Positions 19,159 through 64,000 are shown, numbered from the stretch's first letter. The stretch: DNA of 64,000 nucleotides from Thermoleophilia bacterium (GCA_017882615.1 JADGPD010000001.1:46531-110530), one strand, 5' to 3'. Program-made: numbers and translations. Notes: generated by a model from the letters alone, not told the origin.

Positions 19159-19191
19159 GCCTAGGGAAATCTAAGCGTTTCTTCGGTCGCC

Positions 19192-20115: not shown

Positions 20116-20125
20116 GAGACGGGCG

Positions 20126-21418
<1,293 letters not shown>

Positions 21419-21550
21419 GAGCGAGAGTTTGCCTGAACGGTCGGCGGGCGGCGCGATCGAGCCGATGGCTTCGGCTTTAGATCCTCCGTTTGCGATGCTG
21501 GTCGCGGTGATCGCGCTCACTGCGTGGAGGCTTGGGAGCCGAAGGATCCA

Positions 21551-21574
21551 GTAACGAGGCTGCAAATCGACGTT
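21551..21574 (+). promoter_or_regulatory. Candidate ECF-type promoter (GTAAC-N15-CGTT)
   Basis: AAC and CGT elements 33 nt upstream of the ECF sigma ATG. The spacing is one nt shorter than the usual N16, so this is weak. Confidence 0.25.
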
Positions 21575-21606
21575 GCACATCTGCTTCGATAAACCAAGAA
21601 GTAACG

Positions 21607-45850: not shown

Positions 45851-47686
45851 TCACCCTCCGATTCGCTCGCCTCGCTGAGCGATCTGTGCACCGGATTTGT
45901 CGAAGGCGCGGTACACGAGCAGCGTTTTACTGCCACTGAGCTCGGCGGCCGGAACCAGGTAGCCGACGAGCCCCTCCTTCTGCGTGAGCTTTCCGACAGT
46001 CCCATCGGGGAATGTGACCGTCACTGACGCAACCTGGTCCGGAACCATGCCGGAGAGGAACACGTTGTTCCCGCTATCCCTTTCCCAAGCCCCTATCAGC
46101 GTCAGCGGGTTGCCCTGGGGCATGTTGGTGAGCGGCCAGGGTGAACAGCCGCCGTCTGCGGAGTCCCCCTTGATGGGGTCGCTCACGCGGGACGACATGC
46201 AGCGGACGCCGCCCGCGGTATCGCCGGCCCGGACAATCAGCGTGTGGCCGGCGCCGGCCCTGATGCGGAAGAGCTCGTGGACGCTGGCGCGCGCCTGCCA
46301 CGGGGCCGGGTTGGTCGCCCCGTCACTCTGGTACGTATGGACGTCGATCACGCGCTGCTGGTCGTCGTAGGCGACGAGTCTGGCCGGGAAGGAAGCGCGG
46401 GCGGCCCGGACGATAAAGGCATTGTCCTTGAGCGGGACGTCAACGGTCTCGCCGGAGGCGAGGAACAGCTTGATCTGGGCGACGTCGTCGCTCGCGAGCC
46501 CGCTGAAGACGGAGAACTGGCCCGCACCGGAGCTGCCCGACAAGACGTCGAGCGGGCCGTACTGGAACCGGCGGCTGAAGTGTCCGCACACGGCCCACCC
46601 TGGATCATCTCCACTGGAGATCAGCGCGGTGCAGAGGCCGGGCTCTCCGTTGCTGGGCTTCTCCAGGCTGCCGTCGGTGAGGGTAACGCCCACCCGTTCG
46701 GCGCTCTCGGGGTCGGGCTGGATCAGGCGACCGTAGACGTAGCGGCCGCTCACTAGCTCCGGGAACCGCCGCAGCTCGGACGGGAGTGGCTCTCCCCTCG
46801 GCTCGCGCGCGTCGAGCCAGCCGATCGTACCGCCGCTGACGTGGCGATCGACCTTCGCCGGCCCTTGCGCAGTGCCTTTCGGCGGCTGCGGCAGGTCGAT
46901 CGTCCCGAAGGGGGCCGACTGGAGGGGCAGGGCGACGCTCGTTCCGTCGGCGGCGATCGCCTGGGCGCTGCGAACGCGGACCTGGGCCTGCGTGTGATCG
47001 GTCACATATAAGAACGCGTTCGAGGCGACGAGGGCTTCGTGGTCGCCGTCATCTGCGTGCAGCAACACCTTTGTGACGCCGTCGGAGACGATGCCGAAGC
47101 TCGCGGCCGGTTCGGGCACCTCGTCCGCGCCGTTTGGGGGCGCGCTCGCCGACTCGAACGGCTCGTCGACGGATATCACGAGAGCGGGCTCCTTAGCCGT
47201 CTGCAGCGCCTGAAGCGGCGCGCAGCGCGTCCTCGTGGCGGACACGGCGCCGCTGGCGACGAGGCGAAGACAGAGCTGATCGCCGCTGCGGAAGCCGAGG
47301 AGCGTGTATTTCGCGCCGCCCGCGCTCGTCTCGATCAGGCGCCGTAGCGCGGTGCCGGGAGCGAAGCCGGACCAGGAGCGTTCGTTTGCCTGCTGAAACG
47401 CCTGCTGCTCGGCGGGCGACACAGGCTGGCCCGGCTCGCCGCTGATCCAACTCGCGAAACCGTCGAGACCGCGAGCGACCGCCGCTCCCACCGGGGTGGT
47501 CACCGCGACCAGTAGCGCTGCCACGGTCGCCGCGGCTGCGATCGAGACGAGTCGGCGCCTCGACTTCGTGCGTCCACGGTGAAACGCCGCGCGACCCACG
47601 ACTTCCTGCCAGTTGGCGCGCTCGCCGCTCGGAAGCGGAAGCATCCGGTCAAGCTCGGAGACGATCAGGGCATCCATGTCGATCAT
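45851..47686 (-). CDS. Sigma-associated single-pass membrane protein with large extracytoplasmic domain (putative anti-sigma factor)
   Basis: 611 aa. ATGA overlap with the upstream ECF sigma stop and one TM helix (LVSIAAAATVAALLVAV). No recognised domain beyond that. Confidence 0.5.
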   Translation of the reverse strand: MIDMDALIVSELDRMLPLPSGERANWQEVVGRAAFHRGRTKSRRRLVSIAAAATVAALLVAVTTPVGAAVARGLDGFASWISGEPGQPVSPAEQQAFQQANERSWSGFAPGTALRRLIETSAGGAKYTLLGFRSGDQLCLRLVASGAVSATRTRCAPLQALQTAKEPALVISVDEPFESASAPPNGADEVPEPAASFGIVSDGVTKVLLHADDGDHEALVASNAFLYVTDHTQAQVRVRSAQAIAADGTSVALPLQSAPFGTIDLPQPPKGTAQGPAKVDRHVSGGTIGWLDAREPRGEPLPSELRRFPELVSGRYVYGRLIQPDPESAERVGVTLTDGSLEKPSNGEPGLCTALISSGDDPGWAVCGHFSRRFQYGPLDVLSGSSGAGQFSVFSGLASDDVAQIKLFLASGETVDVPLKDNAFIVRAARASFPARLVAYDDQQRVIDVHTYQSDGATNPAPWQARASVHELFRIRAGAGHTLIVRAGDTAGGVRCMSSRVSDPIKGDSADGGCSPWPLTNMPQGNPLTLIGAWERDSGNNVFLSGMVPDQVASVTVTFPDGTVGKLTQKEGLVGYLVPAAELSGSKTLLVYRAFDKSGAQIAQRGERIGG

Positions 47687-48198
47687 CGTTCGACCTCCTC
47701 GAGAGAGCGGCGAAGCGCAAGGCGCGCCGAGCTCAATGTCGCCGCCACCGTTCCAACCTCGATCTCGAGCGCTGTCGCGATCGACTGGTAATCGAGGTCG
47801 GCGAAGTAGCGAAGAAAGACCGCAAGCCTCTGTCGCTCCGGCAGCGCCGCGATCCAGGTGCGCACGCCGGAGTCGCTTTCAGGGTGACCGTTCAAGCTCG
47901 TTGTTCCGTCAGTTGTCGCCGACGCCGACGTTGACTCCAGCGACTCGCGGCGGGCCGCTTGTGCCCGACGCTGGTGACGCGCCGCGTTCACGACGACCCG
48001 CCAGACCCATGCCTCGAGCGGGCCCTCGCCGCGGAACGACGCGCGCTGCGTCAACACCCGCGAGAACGCCTCCTGGACGGCGTCGTGGCCCGTCGCCTCG
48101 TCTCCGACGATCGCCGTCGCCACCCGCAGGAAGTGGCGGTAGCGCTCCCGATAGATCGACTCGATCTCAGAGACGGGTGGCTTTGATCGATCCATCAC
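47683..48198 (-). CDS. RNA polymerase sigma-70 factor, ECF subfamily
   Basis: 171 aa. Region 2 (YRERYRHFLRVA, DAVQEAF, WVWRVVVN) and region 4 (LPERQRLAVFLRYFADLDYQSIATALEIEVGTVAATLSSARLAL). Confidence 0.88.
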   Translation of the reverse strand: MMDRSKPPVSEIESIYRERYRHFLRVATAIVGDEATGHDAVQEAFSRVLTQRASFRGEGPLEAWVWRVVVNAARHQRRAQAARRESLESTSASATTDGTTSLNGHPESDSGVRTWIAALPERQRLAVFLRYFADLDYQSIATALEIEVGTVAATLSSARLALRRSLEEVER

Positions 48199-48762: not shown

Positions 48763-48835
48763 AGCCCTCTCACGGACTCGAACCGTGGACCCCCTCCTTA
48801 CCATGGAGGTGCTCTACCAACTGAGCTAAGAGGGC
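48763..48835 (-). tRNA. tRNA-Thr (anticodon GGT)
   Basis: Manual cloverleaf fold: acceptor GCCCTCT/AGAGGGC, D-arm GCTC..GAGC, anticodon stem CCTCC/GGAGG with loop ATGGTAA, T-arm CACGG-TTCGAGT-CCGTG. CCA is not encoded. Confidence 0.9.
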
Positions 48836-49850: not shown

Positions 49851-49932
49851 TGGGGGAGGGAGGATTCGAACCTCCGTAGGCTGAGCCGACGGGTTTACAG
49901 CCCGCTCCCTTTGGCCGCTCGGGCACTCCCCC
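49851..49932 (-). tRNA. tRNA-Tyr (anticodon GTA), long variable arm
   Basis: Manual fold: acceptor GGGGGAG/CTCCCCC, anticodon stem GCGGG/CCCGT with loop CTGTAAA, long variable arm, T-arm GGAGG-TTCGAAT-CCTCC. CCA is not encoded. Confidence 0.9.
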
Positions 49933-50177: not shown

Positions 50178-51398
50178 GTGCCGATGCAACCGCGGATGGA
50201 ACTTGACGACCTCCTTACCCGTGTAGTCGAGATCGGGGGCTCCGACCTTCACCTCAAGTTGGGTCAGCCGCCGATCGTCAGGCGAGATGGTGAGCTCGGC
50301 GCGCTCGATGGCTTTCCGCCTTTGGGGCCGAAAGAGCTGAACACCATCCTCGAGACGCTAACCAGGCATCTCCCGAGCAAGCTGCAGGAGTTCCGTCAGA
50401 CGGGCGAGCTCGATATGGCCTTCACGCATCCGAGTCTGCCGCGCTTCCGAGTCAACGGATTCAGGCAGCGCGGCGCTATCTCGTTCGCCTTCCGCGTCAT
50501 CCCGCGCGAGATTCCGACCTTCGAGCAGCTCGAGCTACCGCCCGGGGTGGCCAACCTCGCCAGCTACCACCGCGGACTCGTACTCGTCACCGGCGCGACC
50601 GGAGCGGGCAAGTCGACCACCCTTGCGGCGATGGTCGACCACATCAACCGCACGCGCCGGCAGCACATACTCACGATCGAGGATCCGATCGAGATCCTTC
50701 ATGCCGATCGCGGCTGCATCGTCAACCAACGCGAGATCGGCCTGGATTCCGCCTCCTTCGGCCAGGCGCTGCGGCGCGCCCTGCGCCAGGACCCGGATGT
50801 GATCTTGATCGGCGAGCTGCGTGACCGGGAGACCGCCGAGACGGCGCTACAAGCCGCCGAGTCCGGTCACCTGGTGATGTCGACCATGCACACGATCGAC
50901 GCTTCCGAGACGGTTTCACGCCTCGTTGAGCTGTTCCAGGAGACCAAGCAGGCACAGATCCGCTCGATTCTCGCGGGCGTGCTGCGTGGCGTCGTCAGCC
51001 AGCGCCTGCTGCCGCGTATCGGCGGCGGCCGCGTCGCGGCGGTCGAAGTGATGGTCACGAACGCCCGCATCGCCGATCTGATCCGCGAGGGCAAGGGGGA
51101 GGAGATTCCCGACGCGATCGCAGACGGCGCCTTCTTCCAGATGCAGACTTTCGCGCAGTCGTTGACCTCGCTAGTGCTCGAGGGGAAGGTCGACCGGGAG
51201 ATCGCCGCCAACGCGGCGTCGAATCGCCACGATTTCCTTGTTCAGATCGAGCATGCGACCAAGAGCCAGGCCGCTGGGGAGCAGGGAAAGGACACGGCCG
51301 ACGGCACCCCGGACGGACTTGGAGCTGCGCTCGCGCGTAGCGCGGCGGGCGCGTCGCCCGACGCTGGATCGCTCAGGGTCGCCGGTCCGGACGGATGA
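50178..51398 (+). CDS. pilT: Type IV pilus retraction ATPase PilT
   Basis: 406 aa with GGSDLHL, Walker A GATGAGKSTT, Asp/His boxes (ILIGELRD, GHLVMSTMHT), and a PilT-specific AIRNLIREgK-like ARIADLIREGK. Low-complexity C-terminal extension of about 45 aa. The start could be the ATG at 50196. Confidence 0.9.
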   Translation: MPMQPRMELDDLLTRVVEIGGSDLHLKLGQPPIVRRDGELGALDGFPPLGPKELNTILETLTRHLPSKLQEFRQTGELDMAFTHPSLPRFRVNGFRQRGAISFAFRVIPREIPTFEQLELPPGVANLASYHRGLVLVTGATGAGKSTTLAAMVDHINRTRRQHILTIEDPIEILHADRGCIVNQREIGLDSASFGQALRRALRQDPDVILIGELRDRETAETALQAAESGHLVMSTMHTIDASETVSRLVELFQETKQAQIRSILAGVLRGVVSQRLLPRIGGGRVAAVEVMVTNARIADLIREGKGEEIPDAIADGAFFQMQTFAQSLTSLVLEGKVDREIAANAASNRHDFLVQIEHATKSQAAGEQGKDTADGTPDGLGAALARSAAGASPDAGSLRVAGPDG

Positions 51399-53008
51399 AG
51401 CGGGCGCTAGCGGGCGCCCTGCTGGCGTTCGCGCTTTGTGCCGGGACCGCGAGCGGCGACACCTTCACGGTCGTCTCTCCGTCCAGCCCGTCCTCGACGC
51501 TCGCCGGCGGCGGGCTGCCGAGCTCCCAGATCCCGAACGTCTCGGGCTCGCTTGCGCTCCCGTTGGCCTGGACCGAGCGCGCCGGCGAGGAGACCGCGCT
51601 CACGTCCGCTCAGTTGCGTGGCATCTGGCAGTCGGCCGGCGTCGCCTACGGCGTCCCTTGGTCGGTGCTGGCGGCGATCAACAAGGTCGAGTCGAACTTC
51701 GGTCGCAACATGGGCCCGAGCTCGGCCGGCGCGGTCGGCTGGATGCAGTTCATGCCCGACACCTGGCTGCGCTGGGGTGCCGATTATGACGGGAACGGAG
51801 TGGCCGACCCCTGGAACGCCAAGGACGCTGTGTTCTCAGCCGCGCGCTACCTGGCCGCTGCAGGCGGTGCGAATGACATCTCGCGAGGCGTTTTCGCCTA
51901 CAACCATGCTCAGTGGTATGTGGACGAAGTGCTCTCCCTGGCCCGACTGTTGGGCAATGACGGCTCGCTCAGCTTCTCACTGGACGAGCTGCAAGTGAGC
52001 CTGGAGAAAGCCGAGCAACGAGTCGCCTCGCTCAGCCAGCAGATCGCCCAGACCAACGCCCGCGCGAATGCGCTTGGGCATCGAGCGCAGCGAATGCTCG
52101 CCGCCGCCGAGACGATCAAGCTGATCAACGATCGCTCCGCCGCGCGCGCGCGAGCGGCCCGGGTGCAGATACAGGCCAACTCCCTCGAGGCGCGGCTTCC
52201 GGACTTGAGTGCGGCGCTGGACAAGGCCAAGACGAACCTCGCGAGCGCACGGGCAAGCGCGCAGCCGCAGTCGTTCAACTCCGGCACCTCCGTCTACCTT
52301 GCCAGCGCGCTCTACCAGAACGGCTACGTCTTTCCCGTCGGCGGCGGGCCGAGCCGAGTCTCGGTCGGGCACACGCACCACGACTATCCGGCAGCGGACA
52401 TTGCGGCGCCTGCCGGCTCGCCTGTCTACGCGCTTGCGGACGGAACCGTCGCCAAGGCCTGGCGCACCATCGACCCTCTCTGCGGCATCGGCCTGCGCTT
52501 CCGCACAGACGACGGCCGGACCTGGGCCTATTGCCATCTCTCCTACCTCGAGCCCTCGACCGTGACCGGCGCGCGGCTGACGGCCGGGGCGCTGATCGGC
52601 CTCGTCGGCTCGACGGGACACGCGACCGGACCGCACCTGCATCTCGGGCTGCTTCCCTCGAGCGAAGGCTATCCACAGAGTCAGCCCTGGTTCCAGAGCT
52701 TCGCCGGCGTCGCGTACCGCTGGCAGGACGCGAGTACGCCGTCCGTACCCGGAGTCTCCTCGTCGCTCGGCGCACCGGCGGTGTTTGCCGTCGTGAGCGG
52801 CGCGGCCGGTCTGTCGACGGACAGCACCTGGGCGGAGTCCTCCCAGACGGTCCTACCGTCTACCATCTCGGAGCCGAGCTCGAGCTCGGCTGTCAGCCAA
52901 AGCTCTCTCTTCGCAGCCGCGCCCGGAAGGTCCGCCTCGCCGAGGTCGTCGGCGGGCGCCGAGCCGTCCCAAAGCGTGCAGGGTTCGGCTATTCCATTCA
53001 GTAGATAG
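51395..53008 (+). CDS. Secreted bifunctional murein hydrolase: MltB-like lytic transglycosylase (SLT_2) domain, coiled coil, and M23 metallopeptidase domain
   Basis: Signal peptide. VESNFGRNMG..AVGWMQFMPDTW..DYDGNGVADPWN (SLT_2), a central Ala/Gln/Arg-rich helical region, then HHDYPAADIAAPAGSPV and GSTGHATGPHLHLG (M23). ATGA overlap with the pilT stop. Confidence 0.8.
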   Translation: MKRALAGALLAFALCAGTASGDTFTVVSPSSPSSTLAGGGLPSSQIPNVSGSLALPLAWTERAGEETALTSAQLRGIWQSAGVAYGVPWSVLAAINKVESNFGRNMGPSSAGAVGWMQFMPDTWLRWGADYDGNGVADPWNAKDAVFSAARYLAAAGGANDISRGVFAYNHAQWYVDEVLSLARLLGNDGSLSFSLDELQVSLEKAEQRVASLSQQIAQTNARANALGHRAQRMLAAAETIKLINDRSAARARAARVQIQANSLEARLPDLSAALDKAKTNLASARASAQPQSFNSGTSVYLASALYQNGYVFPVGGGPSRVSVGHTHHDYPAADIAAPAGSPVYALADGTVAKAWRTIDPLCGIGLRFRTDDGRTWAYCHLSYLEPSTVTGARLTAGALIGLVGSTGHATGPHLHLGLLPSSEGYPQSQPWFQSFAGVAYRWQDASTPSVPGVSSSLGAPAVFAVVSGAAGLSTDSTWAESSQTVLPSTISEPSSSSAVSQSSLFAAAPGRSASPRSSAGAEPSQSVQGSAIPFSR

Positions 53009-53043
53009 CCCTTAGGCTCAACTCGAGCTGGCATCCTGTCGAA

Positions 53044-53907
53044 ATGAGGCTCATGCGAGTTCGGTTAACGCTTGGCCGCGTCGTGGCGTTTATCGTCGTC
53101 TGTGCGCTCGCCTCGATGGCGCTGACCATCATCTTTACTCACAGCGATTCTGCGGAGGTCCAGCACAAGGGGAAGACCGCGGCGCCTCCGAACAAGGTGG
53201 TGCCCGGCGTCGTGGGTCAGCTGTACGTCTTCGCCGAGGGCGCGCTGCAGGAGCACGGATTCGGCTGGAAGGTCGTCGGCTCGGTCGAGGGCTGGGCGGG
53301 GATGACCGTCGCGAGCCAGGATCCTCTTCCCGGTACGAGGGTCGTGGATACGGGCGCCCCGCTCGTCACCCTGCGCCTGGTGAAACCGAAGGGCTACGTT
53401 CCTCAGGGCACGCCGGAGAACTCTTCGCCCTTTGCTGGCACCGAGATCTTGTTCCCCGGCGCCTCGACCGTGACGAGTCCGTCGACGACGAGCGCCCGGA
53501 CAACGACCACGAAGACCAGCCCGATCACGACCACGAAAACGCGCCCGACCACGACCGCAAGATCAACGACGTCAGCCAAGCCCAAGCTGCCGGCCCGCCC
53601 ACCCGCTTTCACGATCGCAGGGGCGAAGCCCGAGCCGCTCGATGAGATACCGCTTCCGCAGCGCGCCAAGAATCTGAGCACCTGGCTCGACGCGCATGGC
53701 GCCGCGAGCCCGGCGAACGAACGCTACTGGCTGTTCCAGCATGCTTGGATCGTCACCGGCGCCAAGTTCGGCTGGTGGCACGGCGCCCGCGCGCTGGAGA
53801 CTCTGATCGCGGTGGACAAGCGAGTCGAGAAGCTCTGGGGCATCGGCTCGAGGAGCGAAGCCGAAGCCAGCGCCGCGCTCGAGTTCGTGCGGGCGCACGG
53901 CGGCTGA
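53044..53907 (+). CDS. Membrane-anchored protein with PASTA-like domain, Thr-rich linker and unknown C-terminal domain
   Basis: 287 aa. TM helix VVAFIVVCALASMALTII. VPGVVGQ..A...L...GF...V.G....V.SQDP.PGTRV..GAP.VTLRL fits the PASTA pattern. Then the TSPSTTSARTTTTKTSPITTTKTRPTTTARSTT linker. Confidence 0.5.
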   Translation: MRLMRVRLTLGRVVAFIVVCALASMALTIIFTHSDSAEVQHKGKTAAPPNKVVPGVVGQLYVFAEGALQEHGFGWKVVGSVEGWAGMTVASQDPLPGTRVVDTGAPLVTLRLVKPKGYVPQGTPENSSPFAGTEILFPGASTVTSPSTTSARTTTTKTSPITTTKTRPTTTARSTTSAKPKLPARPPAFTIAGAKPEPLDEIPLPQRAKNLSTWLDAHGAASPANERYWLFQHAWIVTGAKFGWWHGARALETLIAVDKRVEKLWGIGSRSEAEASAALEFVRAHGG

Positions 53908-53932
53908 GTTAGTCAACCTTGCTAGACGGAAG

Positions 53933-53969
53933 CCGACGTCCCCCTCGCGGTTGAGCGAGCGAACGTCGG
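53933..53969. terminator. Hairpin between convergent genes (candidate bidirectional terminator)
   Basis: CCGACGT...ACGTCGG outer stem with inner CTCGC/GCGAG, between the stops at 53907 (+) and 53986 (-). Confidence 0.35.
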
Positions 53970-53985
53970 GTAAGAGCTCTCGCGG

Positions 53986-55932
53986 CTAGCCTGCCGGAAC
54001 GGCTGTCGGCATGGTGTCCGGCGCCACTTCGTGGAAGAGCACCGTCGTCTCCATTCCGTTGATGACCGGGAACCAAGGTGGGAACAGGAACTTCAGCGCG
54101 TCGTATTGCGCGTAGCTCGGTACTGCGGCTCCTGCCGATCCGTCGTCCGCGATTCTGGAGACGCCGTCGATGTTGTAACCGCTGCTGCTGGAGCCAGAAC
54201 CGTATTGCATGCAACCGGAAGGATTGGTGAACGCGCTCGTTCCGACGAACGTCATCGTGCTGCTGTTTCCTCGATAGGCGCCACGGTTCGTGCAGTTGTA
54301 GTCGGACCATATTCCAGTGATCGACATGGTGGCCGCTCTCCACCAGAGGTTCGTGGGCGCGTATTTCGGCAGCCAGATGTTGCCTTTGGCGATCAAGCCA
54401 AGCACGTCGTCATCCGGGCCGCCGATGCCGTCTGTGGCTGCCTCGGAGGCGTAGTGAACGTCGCCGCCGATGATCATGTCACCGGCAGTCGCGACGGTCA
54501 GGCGACCGTTGACCATGCTGGATGGGGAGCCGTCGTGGCTCGTGCTGCTGTACCCGCTGATCGAGCTCGGCCAGGAGATGATCGTGTCCTGGCCGGTATA
54601 GATCGCTCCGTTCGAGGGAATCGGCCCGTTGAAGTAAGGCCACGACCAGGTGATCCCGGTCGAGATCATCGAGACCGTCTCGCCGGCCCCGTGCAACCTG
54701 GTGGACGAGCCGCAGGTGGAGGGGCATGCGACCTGGTTGAGCGTGTTACCAGACCTGCTCTGGTAGGTGACCGTGTCGGTCCTGGAGCTCGAGGGGCCTA
54801 TATAGATCGTGCCGCCTCCAGTCGGGAAAGCTTCCGGGTTTCCGGTCACGCTGACCGTGCTGATCGTCGACCCGTTCGACTTGGGCAGCGTTGTTGCACT
54901 GGTGAGCGTGACGTCGGGGCCGCAGTATGGCTGGCTGGAAGCCGGATCCGGCGATCCGCTGGGGAAGACGCACTTCCACACCTGGAAGTTTCCGTTGGAA
55001 GAGAAATTGATGCGCCAGGCGTTGGCGCTGGAATCCTCGAAATCCGTGGAGGGTGAGTTCAGCGCCGCGGAACGCTTGAGATCGAGGCTCGGATCGCCCA
55101 GGCTGGCGAAAGTGATCGGGTGATTTCTGATCACGGTGCCGATGTCAGGATGAGTCCTGTCGTAAATCCGAGCGGGACTGTGCAACCGCGATCCGCTGAT
55201 TCCGGACACGGTGTCTTCGGCCATCAGGTCACCGTAGGACTCACCGCTGGGGTTGAAACAAATATCGTGAGTGCTGTAGACCTTTCCGTAGAGCGTGCTC
55301 CCGTAGCAGACCGGGTCGTACTTGGTCGGGTCGTAATCGATCATGTACTGGAAGTCGGCGGGAGTCGAGCGCCGGACGCGTATCTCGATTGCACGCTTCG
55401 CGAGCTTGGAGTCGCACTGCAACGGCGTTGCATTCTGATCGACCACCTTGCAGCCGGTCGAGACGATGTCGACGTAGCTGGTTCCAAGCGCTTCCGATGG
55501 CGGAGAAATCATCAAGTTGTAGGCGTAGCCTCGCAGCGAGGTCGAGTTGCCGGCCGCGTTACCCGCGCCCGCAAACCACCAGTCTTTGCTCGCATAGCTC
55601 CATCTGAGGCCGGCCGGCCAGACCGACGGGGTCGTGGACGTACTGTGTGCAACCGTCGCTCCGTTGGAGCCAAGTCGCGTCGATTCGCCCTTCGCTACGT
55701 AGTGGTCATAAAACTGAGGATCCTCGGTCAGCTTGGCGACGTAGTCGTTGATGCCGGCCTCGGCCGCCTGATAGACGGCGTCGTTCTTAACCGCTGTTCC
55801 GGCGCGGGTTGTTTCTGAGGTGACCTGATCGATCAGCACGATCGAGAGAATCGTCAGTACTCCGGTCATCATCACGACCGTCGCCATAGCCATGCCTTCT
55901 TCTCGCGAGAAAAACCGTTTCAGCTTCCTCAT
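53986..55932 (-). CDS. PilX-N-terminal-domain protein, 648 aa (large pilus-associated/pseudopilin-like protein)
   Basis: Start [34 protein letters not shown] (PilX_N-like hydrophobic segment after EEG). ATGA overlap with the upstream gene. Ser/Thr/Gly-rich body. The track ORF's 74-aa upstream extension was rejected. Confidence 0.7.
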
Positions 55933-56651
55933 GATGCGTTCCACCTCAGTGTCGCGACAGCGCCGTAGTTGAACTTCTCGGTCGAGGGGGGGGAAGAGGC
56001 GACGATTCTCACGACCACGGTCTTGACGTCCGAGGCCTGGGTCGGGGCCCGGCACGCCCACGTGATCAGCTCGGCCGAGGTCGAGTTGCTCAAGTCGATC
56101 GCCATATCGGGGGGAGACTGGACGCAGTACTTGAAGATCTGTCCCGCCGCCCATCCACCGTTGGCCGGGTCCCCCGACTGGGGAGAGTAGGCCGAACGCA
56201 CGATTGACTCTACGGGTCCGTGGTCGCCGGGGTCGATTGGGTCTCCGTCGCCGTCGTACGAGGTGACCATGGTGACCTGTCGCTTCAGCGTCGTACCGTC
56301 GAGCCAGTACTTGACTACGCGGAGGTTGTTCGGCGCCATACGATCGGGTGAATAGAAACGGATCGAGTTGGCCAGGGCCGAGCTGGGGAAGATCGGGGGG
56401 GTCGGGGTTCCCGTGGTGGCATCGCGCAGGTCGGAAACGAGCTGGTTGACCTCCGCGCGCACCTCCGTCTGCAAGATGTTCTGAGCCTGCACCTGCGAGC
56501 TGCGCCGGATGATTGTTCCGAACGTCGTCTCGAACATGGCGGTGGTTATTCCGACCAGAACTATCACCACCAAGAGCTCGATCAGAGTGAAGCCGCCCTC
56601 GCTGCCGAGAGTGCTAAGCCGGCGCCGAAAGGCTGACGATAAGCGGTTCAC
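55929..56651 (-). CDS. Prepilin-type N-terminal cleavage/methylation domain protein (240 aa pseudopilin)
   Basis: Class III signal ...[21 protein letters not shown] with Glu at +5. The GTG start overlaps the upstream stop (GTGA). Confidence 0.8.
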
Positions 56652-58123
56652 GAGACACTCACCGCGAAGGCACAGCCCGTCGATGGCACCTTCTGATCGG
56701 TCAGCCCGCCACTCACAGCGATAGTACCGGAGACGCCCCAAGCCTTAATGTCGTAGTCGCCCGTGGGATTCGTCGTGACAGGGAGCCTCACGTTGAGTAT
56801 CTGTCCCGAGCTATTCGTTGGGCCGGCCACTACATAGGCCTGCGGAATAGGATCCAGCGACCCGTCGATGACATCGACGCGTGCGCCCGAGATCGGTGTC
56901 GTGCCCTTTTTAACGGTTATCGTGCAGCTGCTGGTCGTGACCGGCTGGAGCTGGGTGACGAAGGTGGAGGTGAGGTCGGTCGGGTAGTTGCTGGGCACGG
57001 TCTGCCTTACAGAAGAGGCGAACTTCGTCCCGTCAGAGCTGTGCACGCCAACCGCGTAGGTGGCTCCGGAAACGGCCTGTTCGCCGCCGATTGTGGTCGG
57101 CGGAGTGACCCTGAAGATTCCGTCGGAAACGCCGCTGGTGTTGCAGAACTCCTGCGCGCCGCGGGGCATGGGCGCGCCGATGTCCGCGCAGAAACCACCC
57201 GTATAGGGAGTGCCGTCCGCGTTGTTCATATCCACGATGATGGTCGCCGGGCGGTAGAGGTGAACGGTCGTAGTCTGCGTCTGGCTCGGGTTGATTTGGA
57301 GATGGGCGACGTTGACGGGCCCCGCCCCGGTGCCGGCCGGGACCGTGCCGGGCGGGATTTCTTCCCTCAACGTCTGGTAGCCACCCAGGCCGACCAAGAT
57401 GTCGTAATAAGCGTTAACCCCGGTCGTCAGCAGAGTGCCGCCCGAGTCGGCCGGGTTCGGCGTCAGGCCCGCGAATGTGACTAGGCCCGTTTCGTCGGTT
57501 ACATCGCTTGCGTGTGGGCTCGGGCCGTCGAACAGGTCAACCTGCGCTCCCTGGACAGGCGGCGTGGAGGGGCTGGGCGTTGCCAGGTATCCGTTATCCA
57601 CCACGTTCACGTTGATGATCGCGTTGTTGATTCCGCCCAGGCTCGTTCGTGACGGGTTGGAGACATAGGTGTAAATCCGGGCCAGCTGCTTGTTGTCGTT
57701 CTGACGAGAAACGGTTACTCGTACACGCTTGTAGTTCGCGGCCGTTGCGACGCCGGTGGGCGCGGCGTCGTTTACCCATCTGATGCTCGTGGCCAGCGTG
57801 TAACGAAGTCCCATCACCCATTTCTGCTGCGACCCAGGGATGCCCCCGACACCTGATGGGCACGTCGGGTTGCCGCCGGCGACGCAGACATCCGCGTAAA
57901 CCAACTGCCGCACGTACTCGACTTGCTGCTGAGCCAGCTCGAGCGCAATGGTTCTCTGTCGAGCGTTACCGTCGGCTGCGGTGGCCGAGGTCAGCACGCC
58001 TATGGTCGAGGTGCTGACTATGGCGAAGATCGAGATGGCGAAGAGAGTTTCGATCAGCGTGACGCCAGCCTCGCGCCGGGCGGCGCGAAGCAGCCGATTC
58101 CTGATGCACTTGATCCAGTCCAC
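56648..58123 (-). CDS. Prepilin-type N-terminal domain protein, 491 aa modular pseudopilin (PilV-like N-terminus plus Ig-like/carboxypeptidase-regulatory-like modules)
   Basis: Leader [36 protein letters not shown] with Glu at +5. Internal segments such as VNVVDNG...GAQVDLFDG...[14 protein letters not shown] resemble the CarboxypepD_reg fold. Confidence 0.75.
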
Positions 58124-58320
58124 CTGAATGGAGTTTCGGCATATCCGAGCGAGAACTCGTCCCCCAATATCGCTATACGGGGTACCCGTTTTGGTTTTGG
58201 GTTTTAGCGCTTCAAATCTCGCTTCGGGCCGGTTTGGAAGGGGTGAGCGCGGCGCGGGCGAAAATGCACGCGCTAGCCTTGGCGCGAAAGCGCCCCAGAG
58301 AACAGGAGCCCGCGCCGGCG

Positions 58321-59067
58321 ATGAACGTAGCTTTCCCGATTCTCATGCTTCTGCCGGGGCTCGCGCTCGGTAGCTTTCTCAACGTCGTCGCCGCGCGCGT
58401 ACCGCGACACGAGTCGATCGCCTTCCCCGGCTCGCACTGCATGACCTGCGGCCACGCGATCGCCTGGTACGACAACATCCCGCTCGTCTCCTACATCGTC
58501 TTGCGCGGCCGCTGCCGCAACTGCGAATCGGCGATCGGGCTGCGCTATCCGGCCGTCGAGCTTGCGACGGCGCTGCTCGTGTCCGGATGCGTCTGGAAGT
58601 TCGGGTTTCACTTGGAGACCTTGCTCGCGGTTTTCTTCTCCGCGGTGCTGGTCGCCATCTCGGCCGCCGATCTCGAGCACCGCATCGTTCCGAACGTGAT
58701 CGTGCTCCCCGCCGCCGTGATCACGCTCGGCGCCCAGACCGCTCTACATCTCTCCTTCGAATGGACGATCGCCGCCTTCGCGGCATCGGGCTTCCTGCTC
58801 CTGACGGCGCTGCTCTATCCGGGCGGAATGGGTATGGGCGACGTGAAGCTGGCCTTTCTGCTCGGCGCGATGCTCGGTCGCACGGTTGCCGTCGCGCTCG
58901 CCGCCGGCATGATCAGCGCGCTCGTGCCCTCGATCTGGCTGTTCATCCGGCACGGCTCGAAGGCGCGCAAGATGAAGATTCCCTTCGCTCCCTTCCTGGC
59001 GCTCGGCGCCATCGTGGCCCTCTTCGCAGGCAAAGAGTTGCTCGACGCCTACCTGTCGTTCTTCTAG
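58321..59067 (+). CDS. pilD: Prepilin peptidase (A24 family) PilD
   Basis: 248 aa from MNVAFPIL. CMTCGH...CRNC zinc cluster, the two catalytic Asp contexts (AADLEH, GMGMGDVKL), 7-8 TM. Confidence 0.88.
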   Translation: MNVAFPILMLLPGLALGSFLNVVAARVPRHESIAFPGSHCMTCGHAIAWYDNIPLVSYIVLRGRCRNCESAIGLRYPAVELATALLVSGCVWKFGFHLETLLAVFFSAVLVAISAADLEHRIVPNVIVLPAAVITLGAQTALHLSFEWTIAAFAASGFLLLTALLYPGGMGMGDVKLAFLLGAMLGRTVAVALAAGMISALVPSIWLFIRHGSKARKMKIPFAPFLALGAIVALFAGKELLDAYLSFF

Positions 59068-59205
59068 CGATTCCGGGCCGGGCTCTTCGGTCACGAAAAG
59101 CCTGCAAAAGCAGCCGTCGAATGGGTGAGCGAATCGCCCATCTTCATCACTCGTGGCGGTGTCAAGTAGTCGCCATCCGCTGCCGATAGCTCGTTTGAGG
59201 GATAG

Positions 59206-60996
59206 ATGGCAGAAGAACGCCAGTCCACGAAGAGCGGGGGACGAGCGGGCGCGCGCAGCAGCGCACGTCCGTTGGCCGGCGCGCGACAGATCAACGAGCT
59301 CGTAGAGCTTCTCGGGGATCTGCTCGAGGCAACCGGTCTCGTCACGCCCGACAAGCTCGCCGAAGCGCGCAGCGATGCCGGGGCGTCCGGATCGCTCGTC
59401 GCGGCGCTCACCGAGAAGGGCGTGATCCCCGCGGCACGGGTGGCCGAGGTCCGGGCGTCGCACTACCACTTACCGCTGATCTCTCTCGGAGACGAGAAAA
59501 TCTCTCCCGACGCGGTTGCGTCGATTCCGATTCACGTGCTCGAGCGCGTCGTCGCCCTGCCTTACAAGCTTTCGGGCGAGCGCCTGCAGGTTGCAATCGC
59601 CGATCCCTCCGACGTGAGCGGCGTCGATGAGCTGAAGCTCGCGACGCGCTTCCAGATCGAGCTGGGTGTCGCGTCGAGCGAGGAGATCGTCACCGAGCTT
59701 CAGGGACTTTTGCGCCAGAGCGAGACCCTTCACGCTCAATCGGCGGCGCTGGAAGACGTAGAGGTGGTCGAAGAAGGCGTGGGCGAGGTCGACGATCTCG
59801 AGGCCGACGACGGTATCTCAGACGCGCCGCTCGTGCGCCTCGTCAACGCGATCATCTTCCAGGGCGCCGAGGACGGGGCATCGGACATTCACTTCATGCC
59901 CGAGGAGGACGCGCTCGTCATCCGCTACCGAATCGACGGCGTGCTGCAAGAGGTTCAGCGCGTCCCGCGACGCATGGCTTCGGGTGTCACCACGCGCCTC
60001 AAGGTGCTGGCCAAGCTCGACATCGCCGAACGGCGCAAGCCACAGGACGGCCGCATCTCGCTGAACGCCAAGGCGGCAGGACGGATGCTCGATATTCGTG
60101 TCGCGGTGCTGCCGACGGTCGAAGGCGAATGCGTAGTGATGCGCCTGATCGACAAGTCGAGAAAGACGCCGACACTGGAGGGGCTCGGTCTGGCCGAGGA
60201 AATGCGCGAGGAGCTGGAGCATGTGGTCAAGAAGCCGACCGGCACCCTGCTCGTCACCGGGCCGACCGGTTCCGGTAAGTCGACCACGCTGTATGCCGCC
60301 TTGCACATCGTCGCTCAGCCCGAGGTCAACGTCATCACCGTCGAGGATCCGGTCGAGTACCGGCTCCAGGGAATCAACCAGGTTCAGATCAACACCAAGG
60401 CCGGTTTGACCTTCGCGGCCGTCCTGCGCTCGATCCTGCGTGCGGATCCCGACATCCTGATGGTGGGGGAGATTCGCGACTCCGAGACGGCCAAGATCTC
60501 GATCGAGGCGGCACTCACGGGGCACATGGTGCTCTCGTCGCTGCATACCAACGACGCTCCGAGCGCGCTCACGCGGCTGAACGAGATGGGCGTCGAGCCG
60601 TTTCTAACCAGCGCCGCCGTCTCGGGCGTACTGGCTCAGCGCCTGGCGCGGCGCCTTTGCACGAACTGCGCCGAGATGTACACGCCCTCGGTCGGCGAGA
60701 TGGTCGCGGCGAACGTCTCGCCCAGCATCGCAGCCCAGCTCGATGGGATGGCCTTCTATCGCAAAGTCGGCTGCCCACGTTGCAACCAGACCGGCTTCAA
60801 GGGCCGAGTCGGCATCTTCGAGTTCCTGAACATGAGCGACGAGCTGGCCGCTTACTCGGCGACGAAGCCGTCACACGAGGAACTGAGGACGCGCGCGATC
60901 GATCTGGGCATGCGCACGATGTGGGACGAAGGAATGAGCAAGGTCGCCCAGGGGTTGACGTCGATTGAGGAGCTAGCACGTGTCGTTGCGACCTAG
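59206..60996 (+). CDS. pilB: Type IV pilus assembly ATPase PilB (GspE family)
   Basis: 596 aa. N-terminal T2SSE_N-type domain, Walker A GPTGSGKSTT, GEIRD, GHMVLSSLHTND, and a tetracysteine CTNC..CPRC. Confidence 0.9.
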   Translation: MAEERQSTKSGGRAGARSSARPLAGARQINELVELLGDLLEATGLVTPDKLAEARSDAGASGSLVAALTEKGVIPAARVAEVRASHYHLPLISLGDEKISPDAVASIPIHVLERVVALPYKLSGERLQVAIADPSDVSGVDELKLATRFQIELGVASSEEIVTELQGLLRQSETLHAQSAALEDVEVVEEGVGEVDDLEADDGISDAPLVRLVNAIIFQGAEDGASDIHFMPEEDALVIRYRIDGVLQEVQRVPRRMASGVTTRLKVLAKLDIAERRKPQDGRISLNAKAAGRMLDIRVAVLPTVEGECVVMRLIDKSRKTPTLEGLGLAEEMREELEHVVKKPTGTLLVTGPTGSGKSTTLYAALHIVAQPEVNVITVEDPVEYRLQGINQVQINTKAGLTFAAVLRSILRADPDILMVGEIRDSETAKISIEAALTGHMVLSSLHTNDAPSALTRLNEMGVEPFLTSAAVSGVLAQRLARRLCTNCAEMYTPSVGEMVAANVSPSIAAQLDGMAFYRKVGCPRCNQTGFKGRVGIFEFLNMSDELAAYSATKPSHEELRTRAIDLGMRTMWDEGMSKVAQGLTSIEELARVVAT

Positions 60997-61065
60997 ACCT
61001 CAGCGCTACAGTGTGCGTGGCAACGCGCTCGAAGTCGGGCGCCGGTGATTGCGGAGGCGTGAGAA

Positions 61066-63174
61066 GTGCCGTTTCTTCGTCGTAGACAAGAGAACGAGCC
61101 CGATACCCCGGCTGCGGGTGTCGTACCGGCGGCGCCTGAAACCGCCGAGGCAGCGCCTGCGTTTGCGCCTGCGCCAGAGGCGCCGCTCGTCGGCGAGTAT
61201 CCGCAGACTGCCGAGACGCCGGTGGAATCGCAGTTTCAACCCGTCGAGGGTGCCGACGAGATGCTCGACATGCCGCTTGGGACGCTCATCTTTCGCGCCG
61301 GCCTGATTGCCCCCCAACAGCTCGAGGACGCACTGGCCGAAGGGCTTCGCTCGGGCAAGCGGCTGGGCGAGGTACTGCTCTCGCGCGGCTGGCTCAGCGA
61401 GGAGGACCTGAGCCGGCTACTCGCCGGGCAGAAGGGCTTGCCCTACGCCGATCTCGACAAGATCGCCATCGATCGCGAGCTGGCGCAGGCCATGAGCTAC
61501 GACGACGCTCGTAGCGAGATGGCGCTGCCCGTGGTCACCGAGTTTGGTTTGCCGGTGGTCGCGATGGCCGACCCGGACGAAGCGGCGATGGACCGGCTGC
61601 GCGCGCAACTCGGTCCCGAGATTCGGTTCGTCGTCGGAGCGCCGAGCGCGCTCACGCGTCTCATCGAGGAGGTGCTTGGCGGCGCTCCGGCTCAGGCGCT
61701 GTCGGTCACGCCGACCGCACGCGAGCAACACGCGCCGACCGAGCCGAGTGCGGACTATCAGTTCACGCCGGATGAGGCTCCTGTGGCCGAGCCCTCCCCG
61801 GCGGAGACCGCCGTAGAGGCCGAGCCCGTTCTGTCCGAGCCGGCCCCGACCGAGGCGATAGCGCCCGACTCGAGCGAGCAGGAGGCTCCAGCCCCCGTTC
61901 CCGATCCTGCGGCGCAGGAGATCCATCCGATCATGGCCGACGAGGAGGTCGAATACCCGACGTTCACGCAGTATCAGCCCCTTCCGGAGACAGAAATCAT
62001 CGTGGGGTCCGACGAGCAGCTTCCCGCCGAGGTGCAAACGGGAGAATACGGCTACTACGACGATTCTTCGCTGCTGGAAGGCAACGCCTGGCAGGCCGGA
62101 GAGACCGGGCCGCCGGCGGCAGAACCCGCGCCGGAGTTCACCGATATCGGCGCCGATCAGTTCGATGTCGATCGACCATCCGAAGAACCCGTGGCGCCCG
62201 CCGAAGAGGTTGTGCCGACCGAATACGTCGAGCCAATCGAACAGGCCGAGGCACCGAACGAATACGTCGAGCCAATCGAACAGGCCGAGGCACCGACCGA
62301 ATACATCGAGCCAATCGAACAGGCCGAGGCGCAAGTCGAAGAGCCCGCGTTGCCGGCCGAGTATGTCGAGCAGTCGCTCGACGAGGCCGAGACGCCGATC
62401 GAGCAAGCGTGGGAGGAGCCGGCTGCAGAAGCCGTGCCGGAGCCTGTCGCGCCCGAGCTCGAGCAGCCCGCGCCAGCGCCGCCGGAAGAAATCGCAGACG
62501 CGCCGGCGGGCGAAGATGATCCGGCGCTCACGACGCCCGCCTGGATGCGCGGCGAGCTCAACGTCATAACCGCCGACGTGGCCGACTTCATCGATTCCGG
62601 CGCTTCGAGTGCCACTGAGCCTCCGCTTTCAGCGCCGGTCGAGAACGACGCCGCCGAAGTCGAGCCGGCGCCTTTCCTCGCCGCGGACGAGCCGCCGGTC
62701 GACGCGCCGCTTCCCGAAGATGCCACGGACCTGGAAACCGCCGAGCTCGCCGAAAGCGACGCGGTCGCCGCGGAGCTCGATCCCGAGCCTCCCGCCTGGG
62801 CAAGCGAGCCCGTCGAAGCGGTCGAGGAAGCCGCGCTCGAAGGCGCGGTCGACGTTCCGCCCGAGCCGGCGCCCGAGGCCTCGCAGGATGAATCTGCCCC
62901 GAAGGCCGGTCGCGGCGCGTTCGAGCTTGTGCTGCGCCTCGTGGACGGCGATCGGATGCCGATCGGATCCTTCGACACTGTTGAGGGGGCGCAAGAGAAG
63001 GCCGCCGAGGTCGTCAAGCAGTTCGCGGAGATGAAAGAAGGCGGCTGGCCCTTCATCGGCGGTCGCTTCCTGCGCCCGGAGACGATCGTCTCGATCGACG
63101 TCGAACAGCACGGCTCCGGCTGGGGCGGCTCCAACTCGCGCGGGCGCATGTTCTCCGGCGGCGACGGCTCGTAG
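61066..63174 (+). CDS. Orphan MshEN/T2SSE_N-domain protein with long acidic Pro/Glu/Ala-rich repeat region and unknown C-terminal domain
   Basis: 702 aa, GTG start. Residues 70-122 are PLGTLIFRAGLIAPQQLEDALAEG-LRSGK-RLGEVLLSRGWLSEEDLSRLLAGQ (two 24-residue motifs, 5-residue spacer). There is no ATPase domain. About 400 aa are acidic low-complexity, followed by about 90 aa of folded-looking C-terminus. Confidence 0.8.
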   Translation: MPFLRRRQENEPDTPAAGVVPAAPETAEAAPAFAPAPEAPLVGEYPQTAETPVESQFQPVEGADEMLDMPLGTLIFRAGLIAPQQLEDALAEGLRSGKRLGEVLLSRGWLSEEDLSRLLAGQKGLPYADLDKIAIDRELAQAMSYDDARSEMALPVVTEFGLPVVAMADPDEAAMDRLRAQLGPEIRFVVGAPSALTRLIEEVLGGAPAQALSVTPTAREQHAPTEPSADYQFTPDEAPVAEPSPAETAVEAEPVLSEPAPTEAIAPDSSEQEAPAPVPDPAAQEIHPIMADEEVEYPTFTQYQPLPETEIIVGSDEQLPAEVQTGEYGYYDDSSLLEGNAWQAGETGPPAAEPAPEFTDIGADQFDVDRPSEEPVAPAEEVVPTEYVEPIEQAEAPNEYVEPIEQAEAPTEYIEPIEQAEAQVEEPALPAEYVEQSLDEAETPIEQAWEEPAAEAVPEPVAPELEQPAPAPPEEIADAPAGEDDPALTTPAWMRGELNVITADVADFIDSGASSATEPPLSAPVENDAAEVEPAPFLAADEPPVDAPLPEDATDLETAELAESDAVAAELDPEPPAWASEPVEAVEEAALEGAVDVPPEPAPEASQDESAPKAGRGAFELVLRLVDGDRMPIGSFDTVEGAQEKAAEVVKQFAEMKEGGWPFIGGRFLRPETIVSIDVEQHGSGWGGSNSRGRMFSGGDGS
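62221..62337 (+). repeat. Three tandem 39-bp coding repeats (EYVEPIEQAEAP(N/T))
   Basis: Units at 62221-62259, 62260-62298 and 62299-62337. The first two differ at one position; the third diverges at its 3' end. Confidence 0.9.
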
Positions 63175-63298: not shown

Positions 63299-63607
63299 CT
63301 AGCTGACTTCGCAGCCGAGGTACTCGAGCGCGAGCAGCGCTTCCTCGATGTAGGCGGCCGCTTCGTCCTTGCTGCCGAAGTGATACGGGCCCGGATGAAG
63401 CGGCTCGACGCGCAGGCTGTTGGTCGGATAAACATCGCACTCGACCACGAACTGCTCGTCGCGTTCGAACAGGCGCAGAATCACGACGCGGCGTCCGTCC
63501 TTCTTGGCGTGGCGATGGAAGCTCTCCTTGGCGGACGCCTTGCCGCCCTTTTTCGAACTGCCCTTGCCGCCGGAGCGGAGGCCATATTCGTCGGCGAGGT
63601 CGCTCAC
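63299..63607 (-). CDS. Hypothetical protein (102 aa)
   Basis: Lys/Gly-rich basic N-terminus, then a compact domain. ATGA overlap with the upstream ORF's stop. Confidence 0.5.
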   Translation of the reverse strand: MSDLADEYGLRSGGKGSSKKGGKASAKESFHRHAKKDGRRVVILRLFERDEQFVVECDVYPTNSLRVEPLHPGPYHFGSKDEAAAYIEEALLALEYLGCEVS

Positions 63608-63978
63608 GAGGCGCAGCTGATGATCTGGAGTTTCGCCGCGAGGCTGCTCGCACTTGCGATCAGCGCCGCGTTCTTTTGGTCGATCGAGGTAGCGGTCGTC
63701 CGATCGTTACCGCGAAGCGCCGCCGCCTCGGAGCCCATATTGGTTGCGATCTGTTGCAGATCGGCTACGAGTTGAGAGTAATCCTTGGCATTGCCCACGT
63801 TCGCCCTGACGGCGCGAAGCGATTTCGTTTCCCGCGTCAGAGTGGCTGCGGCGCTGTTCATCGCCGCCGCGGCTTGTGCTCGCCCTGCCGCTGTGTCGAG
63901 GTTGGCGCTCTTCGCCTTGCTCAAAGCCAGCGAGAGCGGTCCCGAGAAGCGGCTGCAGATCCTGTCCGCGTCGCTCAC
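63604..63978 (-). CDS. Hypothetical helical protein, 5' end possibly beyond the window
   Basis: 124 aa from GTG 63978, Ala/Ser/Thr-rich and helical. The frame stays open up to position 64000, so the true start may lie outside the window. Confidence 0.45.
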   Translation of the reverse strand: MSDADRICSRFSGPLSLALSKAKSANLDTAAGRAQAAAAMNSAAATLTRETKSLRAVRANVGNAKDYSQLVADLQQIATNMGSEAAALRGNDRTTATSIDQKNAALIASASSLAAKLQIISCAS

Positions 63979-64000
63979 CCAAGGATCGGAGAAGGGATAG

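Follow-up and report, generated by a model that had tools for sequence, protein, structure and literature searches.

The stretch of DNA analysed here (the window, 64 kb in length; GCA_017882615.1 JADGPD010000001.1:46531-110530) comes from an uncultured soil bacterium of the Gaiellaceae (Actinomycetota, Thermoleophilia), and towards its right end it holds nine genes, between positions 50178 and 63174, that are related to type IV pilus (T4P) biogenesis. These encode a retraction ATPase (PilT1), a predicted peptidoglycan hydrolase with SLT and M23 domains, a membrane-anchored PASTA protein, three minor pilins, the prepilin peptidase PilD, the extension ATPase PilB, and a stand-alone ("orphan") protein with an MshEN domain (Table 1). 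The window has a G+C content of 66% and its open reading frames (ORFs) are strongly biased toward G or C in third codon positions, a bias that is strong in each of these nine. Their coordinates match those listed in a preliminary description of the window, and all nine genes proved to be real and correctly identified by Pfam and NCBIfam, together with a fold search for the PASTA protein and family-level matches to PilX_N for the largest minor pilin. The lengths given there for the minor pilins (648, 240, and 491 amino acids (aa)) are supported by the ATGA and GTGA start-stop overlaps, read from the sequence, that chain the three genes.

Table 1. Features of the pilus locus. Coordinates are those of the window, except for the last three rows, which refer to loci of related genomes.
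Feature	Coordinates	Strand	Basis
pilT1, retraction ATPase of the PilT/PilU family, 406 aa	50178-51398	+	T2SSE, TIGR01420
Secreted SLT/coiled-coil/M23 peptidoglycan hydrolase, predicted	51395-53008	+	SLT_2, SLT, Peptidase_M23
Membrane-anchored extracytoplasmic PASTA and four-helix-bundle protein	53044-53907	+	PASTA (borderline), fold search
PilX/GspK-like minor pilin, 648 aa from M75, extra C-terminal module	53986-55932	-	N-terminus, family-level PilX_N
GspH/J- or PilW-like minor pilin, 240 aa from GTG at 56651	55929-56651	-	N_methyl
PilV/GspI-like modular minor pilin, 491 aa, immunoglobulin-like (prealbumin-type) C-terminal domains	56648-58123	-	N_methyl
Intergenic region with presumed promoters, from which the minor-pilin operon and pilD-pilB diverge	58124-58233	.	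gene arrangement only
pilD, prepilin peptidase; true start possibly ATG at 58321	58234-59067	+	A24_N_bact, Peptidase_A24
pilB, extension ATPase, 596 aa, degenerate MshEN N-domain	59206-60996	+	MshEN, T2SSE
Stand-alone MshEN protein, 702 aa	61066-63174	+	MshEN as sole Pfam domain
p102, small conserved protein	63299-63607	-	synteny with relatives
p310, 3' part (transmembrane helix, Thr-rich linker, C-terminal domain), cut by the window end	63604-64000	-	tblastn
Extended pilM, locus L008	17513-20278
Extended pilM, locus L010	about 19000-21787
Extended pilM, locus L083	6500-9319

PilT1 matches T2SSE with 152 bits and the PilT/PilU model TIGR01420 with 422.8 bits (cut-off 319.1), and it shares 46% identity with the second PilT found in related genomes. 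A reading of pilT1 and the adjoining hydrolase gene as the remnant of a conjugative type IV secretion system (VirB11 plus a VirB1-like enzyme) was rejected, since PilT1 passes the PilT/PilU model and falls far below the cut-off on VirB11/TrbB. PilD carries both A24_N_bact (PF06750; 118 bits) and Peptidase_A24 (PF01478; 55 bits). PilB combines T2SSE (434.5 bits) with an N-terminal MshEN domain (52.5 bits); its best NCBIfam match is TIGR02538 (type_IV_pilB) at 568.7 bits, under the equivalog cut-off of 675.65, and its N-terminal domain reaches 15.4 bits on the model of the cyclic di-GMP (c-di-GMP) motif, for which the cut-off is 38.

The window contains no pilC, pilM, pilN, pilO, or small pilin gene according to tblastn with the proteins of relatives and a six-frame scan for class III signal peptides, which returned the 240- and 491-aa pseudopilins only. 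A PilB-based scan of species-representative genomes gave a block of metagenome-assembled genomes of the Gaiellaceae and Gaiellales, with PilB proteins 83-99% identical to that of the window; loci outside the window are numbered with the prefix L. In 11 Gaiellaceae loci within this range, the nine genes of the window occur in identical order and orientation. There, the orphan mshEN gene is followed by two minus-strand genes, p102 and then p310, the second of which belongs to the operon of the pilin gene pilA. The end of the window falls inside p310, the tblastn match to residues 180-308 of the L008 protein (53% identity) reaching base 63999.

Further to the right, a 129-139-aa pilin and a second pilT are present in all nine loci that extend far enough (L001, L002, L005, L006, L008, L010, L012, L070, and L083), with the pilin gene located 0.6-2.2 kb past p310. 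The N-terminus of this pilin reads MADLIRKRLTGKEEG/FTLIELLVV, with cleavage (slash) after KEEG, and matches N_methyl with an E-value of 9e-9. Genes for PilM, PilN, and PilO were found in six loci: by Pfam in L008 (PilM_2 133 bits; PilN 27.6 bits against a cut-off of 22.8; PilO 42.5 against 22), by tblastn in L080-L083, and by precomputed Pfam matches in L089, a more distant Gaiellaceae lineage in which pilD, pilB, the orphan mshEN gene, and two pilins were recovered as well. In two of these loci, L083 (T2SSF 204 bits) and L081, pilC comes after pilO. The entire right arm is present in L083, a 49-kb metagenome contig whose PilB is 92% identical to that of the window, in the order pilB, mshEN-orphan, p102, p310, pilA, pilT2, pilM, pilN, pilO, a gene for a 274-aa membrane protein, and pilC, followed by metY and nusG-rplK-rplA-rplJ; the right arm of L081 is arranged in the same way.

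Read across these syntenic relatives, the whole cluster would begin with pilT1, slt-cc-m23 (the hydrolase gene), and pasta, continue with the pilX-like, pilW-like, and pilV-like genes on the minus strand, then with pilD, pilB, and mshEN-orphan, then again on the minus strand with p102, p310, a GT-C-like gene in some loci, and pilA, and end with pilT2, pilM, pilN, pilO, the 274-aa membrane protein, and pilC. The window very probably holds the left arm of this cluster, about 14 kb of about 23 kb, or its first two-thirds. No secretin was matched by Pfam families among the called neighbours of L087-L089 or in the window, and ORF scans of L083 and L081 gave no secretin or PilP candidate between pilO and pilC, a pattern that fits a monoderm-type, single-membrane system.

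On this evidence the locus is, in all likelihood, part of a complete, retractile, monoderm-type type IVa pilus (T4aP) system encoded in a single cluster. It can be described as a variant, specific to this lineage, of a system already known, with accessory genes that are conserved but not part of the usual set. The preliminary description had correctly noted that the window itself lacks pilC, pilMNO, and a small pilin, and that three of its proteins (hydrolase, PASTA protein, and detached MshEN protein) do not belong to the standard parts of a T4P; the genes of all three turn out to be conserved in synteny across the Gaiellaceae. Its proposal of a non-canonical locus lacking the core, and of a distinct T4P-related machine, does not stand, because the core genes lie past the window end in relatives; their apparent lack is in all likelihood an artefact of the window edge. 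The same description had allowed that the locus might be one arm of a canonical cluster lying immediately outside the window, with accessory genes that are not conserved alongside it. The relatives bear out the first half of this statement and contradict the second, the accessory genes being conserved together with the cluster.

T4aP have already been predicted bioinformatically in Actinobacteria (PMC6668835), and experimental work in the Actinomycetota has dealt with Tad-type pili only (PMC6916266). In monoderm T4aP, as reviewed for Firmicutes, the genes are clustered, PilMNO and PilT are used, secretin and PilP are missing, the leader of the major pilin is long, and very large modular minor pilins occur (PMC6916266). 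By established homology, PilD would cleave the pilin and the three minor pilins, PilB, PilC, and PilMNO would polymerise PilA, and PilT1 and PilT2 would retract the fibre. Like the systems of Firmicutes (the Streptococcus sanguinis pil locus; Clostridium perfringens and C. difficile), the Gaiellaceae cluster appears to bring PilB, PilC, PilD, PilM, PilN, PilO, and PilT together in one place, with a long-leader major pilin, three minor pilins, very large modular minor pilins, and no secretin or PilP seen. It differs from them in belonging to the Actinomycetota, in having two PilT paralogues, in the SLT-M23, PASTA, and stand-alone MshEN genes, and in the long Pro-rich N-terminal extension of the relatives' PilM. 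No similarity of the window's minor pilins to S. sanguinis PilA, PilB, or PilC was detectable.

Several genes of the right arm have features of their own. The PilM extension is very long and consists of Pro/Ala/Gly-rich tandem repeats and Lys-rich KVPFYKREISxGGKKKK repeats, so that in the 921-aa protein of L008 the PilM_2 domain occupies residues 573-920 only. The 102-aa p102 protein looks cytoplasmic, has no match in Pfam or NCBIfam, and is 86-93% identical across relatives at a constant position, which makes it better conserved than most pilus proteins of the cluster; its gene is translationally coupled to p310 (GTGA) and is the last gene of the minus-strand operon that contains pilA in relatives. 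Between pilA and p310, two loci encode a polytopic membrane protein of about 700 aa (L001 15244-17358, minus strand; L005 15136-17199, minus strand) that is absent in L008 and L083. It has a weak match, below cut-off, to PMT_2, a GT-C glycosyltransferase family (E-value 3.4e-4), and from its position it could be a candidate pilin glycosyltransferase. The 274-aa protein encoded between pilO and pilC (L083 10690-11514, plus strand) starts with an N-terminal transmembrane helix, continues with a long stretch rich in Ser and Thr, and ends in a small C-terminal domain. No family match was found for it; it could take the place of PilP in a monoderm or form some other part that spans the wall.

The accessory genes begin with the hydrolase, which is composed of a Sec signal peptide, an SLT lytic transglycosylase domain, a coiled coil of about 100 aa, an M23 endopeptidase domain, and a low-complexity tail. 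Its Pfam matches are all over the cut-offs (SLT_2 65 bits, SLT 38.5 bits, Peptidase_M23 58.9 bits). An assignment as a lipoprotein was considered and set aside, since homologues do not keep the Cys and an atypical residue stands at -1. E99-S100, H328/H329/D330...D335, H381, and H414-x-H416 are invariant in 20 homologues, and E99-S100 represents the E-S motif with the catalytic Glu of lytic transglycosylases (SLT, GH23). Because the His and Asp residues of the M23 domain are invariant, this domain is probably active and not a degenerate activator. The structural model includes a confident helical hairpin at residues 190-293, and its Foldseek matches are LytM, lysostaphin, ShyA, full-length EnvC in FtsEX-EnvC, and the Neisseria M23 proteins 6muk and 3slu, which we take to be NGO1686 and its meningococcal orthologue NMB0315.

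The hydrolase gene is tied to pilT1 by a 4-bp overlap of stop and start codons (ATGA, 51395-51398), that is, by translational coupling. Its closest homologue is 93% identical, and the overlap is kept in homologues of 52-93% identity, including lineages of 52-56% identity in which the remaining locus is rearranged. Outside this group, the best plasmid-borne homologue with both SLT and M23 domains is encoded on Bacillus subtilis plasmid NZ_OX419581.1 (24081-38908; L090), where it is the last gene of a Tad/Flp-like pilus operon annotated with CpaB, an AAA ATPase, and an ATPase of the family shared by type II secretion systems (T2SS), T4P, and type IV secretion systems. By this annotation, L090 is an independent monoderm type IV filament locus carrying an SLT+M23 hydrolase.

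The PASTA protein is a borderline case by profile, its Pfam PASTA match (20.3 bits, E-value 5.5e-4) lying just below the gathering score of 23.2. Its orthologues form a large family within the Gaiellaceae, and many of them carry a precomputed PF03793 match. In the AlphaFold model a transmembrane helix (residues 10-32) is followed by a PASTA fold (50-113), a disordered linker rich in Thr, Ser, and Pro (140-181), and C-terminal helices (204-285) with a predicted local distance difference test score (pLDDT) of about 90 that form a conserved, Trp-rich four-helix bundle. In Foldseek, PASTA domains of PknB, PBP2x, PBP1, and PrkC take the first seven places among the PDB matches (probability 0.95-1.0), with a TM-score of 0.72 for the PASTA fold to the single-domain entry 3ouv, and the structure search found no meaningful neighbour for the four-helix bundle. 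The Thr-rich linker is encoded in part by an in-frame tandem repeat of 24 bp (2.6 copies; 53494-53556).

In the orphan MshEN protein, the MshEN domain (Pfam, 52.8 bits) is followed by a disordered region of about 375 aa, acidic and rich in Pro, Glu, and Ala, and by a conserved C-terminal domain of about 80 aa. Both terminal domains are conserved in 12 homologues, in which the length of the linker between them ranges between about 0 and 400 aa. On the c-di-GMP motif model NF053729 (c-di-GMP_motif) the protein scores 54-57 bits against the cut-off of 38, with all 53 positions aligned to residues 70-122, and its tandem motifs are joined by a 5-residue linker, PLGTLIFRAGLIAPQQLEDALAEG-LRSGK-RLGEVLLSRGWLSEEDLSRLLAGQ. 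The motif has been defined as two 24-residue copies of RLGxxL(L/V/I)xxG(L/V/I/F)(L/V/I)xxxxLxxxLxxQ with a 5-residue linker, and R9 and Q32 of Vibrio cholerae MshEN, positions 1 and 24 of motif 1, are reported to be pivotal for c-di-GMP binding (PMC12943098). Motif 2 of the orphan fits the consensus in full, its Arg and Gln both being invariant, and c-di-GMP binding by this protein is plausible from its sequence. The 53-residue tandem-motif domain is the one known from MshE and other ATPases of T4P and T2SS, differing in that it is detached from any ATPase and that its fusion partners are the long acidic, disordered stretch and the small domain at the C-terminus, the copy in PilB being degenerate. 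Within the disordered linker, a 39-bp in-frame repeat (three copies, 96% matches; 62215-62330) encodes EYVEPIEQAEAP(N/T).

How these three genes might serve the pilus can be sketched from their position. The secreted SLT/coiled-coil/M23 enzyme, co-translated with PilT1, would open the peptidoglycan locally for the fibre, a role suggested by adjacency and coupling. The PASTA and helical-bundle protein, from its adjacency, may place the machine or the hydrolase on the wall, and the adjacent stand-alone MshEN protein may sense c-di-GMP in place of the degenerate N-domain of PilB and relay the signal to the motor in trans. We tentatively propose, as a possibility and not as the expected outcome, that the Gaiellaceae T4aP has a dedicated wall-breaching module (the SLT/coiled-coil/M23 enzyme with a PASTA protein that docks it), plus c-di-GMP control that has moved from PilB to a tethered MshEN protein. 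There is precedent for wall hydrolases in pilus assembly: LytF promotes extrusion of the competence pilus in S. sanguinis, as reported in 2026 (PMC13192262), and the M23 protein NGO1686 is required for full piliation (PMC3735123). With these proteins (NGO1686/Mpg of the Neisseria T4P, LytF of the streptococcal Com pilus) and with the VirB1-type SLT plus peptidase of Gram-positive conjugation, the enzyme shares the character of a secreted wall hydrolase tied, by genetics or by function, to a filament or secretion machine, and its model matches the M23 fold of the NGO1686 and NMB0315 structures. NGO1686 and LytF are both encoded away from pilus genes, whereas here fused SLT, coiled-coil, and M23 parts are encoded inside a chromosomal T4aP cluster by a gene that overlaps pilT.

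The alternative that survives best, which we regard as possible but doubtful, is a standard T4aP in which the SLT-M23, PASTA, and MshEN-only proteins are bystanders with general roles, for instance in remodelling the wall during growth or division or in other c-di-GMP pathways. SLT and M23 are ubiquitous modules of housekeeping hydrolases (more than 4000 matches), and the coiled coil followed by M23 resembles the division factor EnvC. The likeness to EnvC and other FtsEX-associated LytM factors extends to a long helical hairpin before the M23/LytM domain, with 340 columns aligned by Foldseek to full-length V. cholerae EnvC; it is one of architecture and does not establish homology of the coiled coils, and the window protein has an extra SLT domain and no adjacent FtsEX genes. 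Synteny also has gaps, as about 6 kb of unrelated genes separate the hydrolase and PASTA genes in L087, and no PASTA gene adjoins in L088. Yet pilT and slt-m23 keep their start-stop overlap in homologues as distant as about 52% identity and where the remaining locus is rearranged, the PASTA gene of L087 still adjoins a pseudopilin gene and pilD, and the orphan mshEN gene stands beside pilB in every locus examined, including the distant lineage L089. The independent SLT+M23 gene in the Tad-type operon of the Bacillus plasmid likewise argues against mere neighbourhood.

The three minor pilins, encoded between the PASTA gene and pilD, form a hypervariable, modular cassette of PilV/W/X-like proteins in the classic order of a priming complex, their family membership being read from N-terminal signals only. 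The 491-aa protein has a conserved class III signal (REAG/VTLIE) and an N_methyl match of 22.8 bits against 21.2, with matches of its N-terminus to ComGE, GspI, and PilV types all below cut-offs; across its family, N_methyl was found in seven of seven members, CarboxypepD_reg immunoglobulin (Ig)-like domains in five of seven (best E-value 1.3e-5), and SpaA in two of seven. The 240-aa protein matches N_methyl (23.6 bits against 21.2) and IV_pilin_GFxxxE (22.5 against 16.3), with a GspH-like N-terminus below cut-off, and 11 orthologues share its signal EGG/FTLIELLVV. In the 648-aa protein the N-terminus is of the PilX type, EEG/MAMATVVMM, in which Glu5 is missing and the +5 residue is Thr. PilX_N is matched at an E-value of 0.01 or less by 16 of 40 members of its family (best 2.7e-7), the window protein itself reaching 0.29. 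This family has only 214 cluster representatives among 1.84 billion proteins, most of them 450-500 aa long, with residues 1-340 in common. Sequence searches of the PDB with the PilX-like, PilV-like, and PASTA proteins and with two family profiles gave no usable match.

The cassette (53986-58123) has a lower GC content than its surroundings (0.61-0.63 against 0.67). Compared with L001 (4786-8919), its three proteins are 50, 66, and 42% identical and the flanking proteins 93-99.5% (PilT1 99.5, PilD 98, PilB 99), and DNA identity drops from about 90-95% to about 68% or to no match between 54694 and 57609. The PilV-like protein of the window is closest (61%) to that of L005, a locus whose PilB is only 88% identical. 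This pattern of divergence suggests cassette exchange or diversifying selection. The Pseudomonas pilin island shows cassette-like variability between strains. Like GspI-J-K of the T2SS and FimU-PilVWX of Pseudomonas, the trio runs in the order I/V-like, J/W-like, and K/X-like, the last lacking Glu5; the three genes are joined by translational coupling and have pilD and pilB as neighbours. The 491- and 648-aa proteins are two to three times larger than in those systems and carry Ig-like and other C-terminal modules, and no equivalents of PilY1 or FimU/PilE were found. The trio may act as a priming tip complex whose large, fast-diverging modules serve as adhesins.

A main role in DNA uptake (competence) or protein secretion, and not in adhesion or twitching, is unlikely. 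T4aP do mediate DNA uptake in many bacteria. A role of this kind would also agree with the description of the sole cultured relative, Gaiella occulta, as non-motile (PMC6741124). It fits poorly with the two PilT-family retraction ATPases and with a PilB of the full-length PilB/GspE type instead of the ComGA type, and comEA and comEC were not found in the window or in the flanks examined. The large hypervariable tip pilins with their Ig-like modules suggest ligand binding.

Several observations weigh against a complete, retractile T4aP with functional accessory parts. The pilus link of the accessory genes is drawn from adjacency and translational coupling. Motif 1 of the orphan MshEN protein invariantly has Pro and Gly instead of the consensus Arg and Gln. 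The first metal-binding motif of the M23 domain is non-canonical, HHDYPAAD and not HxxxD, though it is invariant and the fold resembles active M23 enzymes; the full-length SLT-M23 model is of low confidence (pLDDT 57) and does not decide whether the coiled coil occludes the M23 domain. The non-motile Gaiella occulta counts here too. The right arm was read in relatives and is ascribed to the genome of the window by synteny, and the nearest relative, L001, itself stops after pilT2.

This last point touches the weakest alternative, that the genome truly has a reduced, non-canonical T4P-like machine or keeps its core genes elsewhere, which is very improbable: pilC, pilMNO, and a small pilin are absent across the 64 kb and the DNA past 64000 is known from relatives only, but the window stops within a gene of the pilA operon, L001, with flanking genes 90-99% identical, continues with pilA and pilT2, pilMNO occur in six loci and pilC in two of these, and all known type IV filament systems depend on a platform protein for their assembly. 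Because all nine informative relatives carry right-arm genes and the window breaks off mid-operon, the chance that the host genome is without these genes is at most very slight.

The pilus cluster is bounded by tRNA genes and by the conserved region of nusG and ribosomal protein genes, as seen from tRNA-Thr and tRNA-Tyr directly left of pilT1 (48763-48835 and 49851-49932, both on the minus strand) and from nusG, rplK, rplA, and rplJ a few kb past pilC in L083 (16640-19528). An Rfam scan of the locus found no riboswitch or other RNA, the only matches being two tRNAs at its left edge; a scan for sigma-70 consensus promoters gave no site in the locus, and terminator-like matches were uninformative. 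ARAGORN also called a tRNA-Cys at 32816-32897 (plus strand), with an odd anticodon position and inside a 549-aa ORF (31576-33225), which is probably a false positive because Rfam is silent there at its gathering score. The other roughly 50 kb of the window is of housekeeping character, with pur genes of purine biosynthesis, dnaB, sigma-70, the cobalt energy-coupling factor transporter cbiMQO, and MMPL. Left of the locus, a 1159-aa protein with three CarboxypepD_reg/PEGA Ig-like domains is encoded at 38340-41819 (plus strand), and an extracytoplasmic function sigma factor gene (47683-48198) overlaps the start of a 611-aa ORF that is possibly an anti-sigma factor (region 45851-48198, minus strand).

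An apparent absence of core genes that is produced by a window boundary is a methodological lesson in itself. T4aP of the Actinomycetota have been predicted by genomics and never studied, and the passage of a pilus through the peptidoglycan of single-membrane bacteria is named in a review as an unsolved problem (PMC6916266). The hydrolase gene that is coupled to pilT and conserved with the cluster offers a testable candidate for this passage through the monoderm wall, and c-di-GMP may be sensed in trans by the detached MshEN protein. If the proposal is true, the wall-breaching module would be a monoderm-specific, locus-encoded solution to the crossing of the wall by the pilus, with a trans-acting second-messenger switch.

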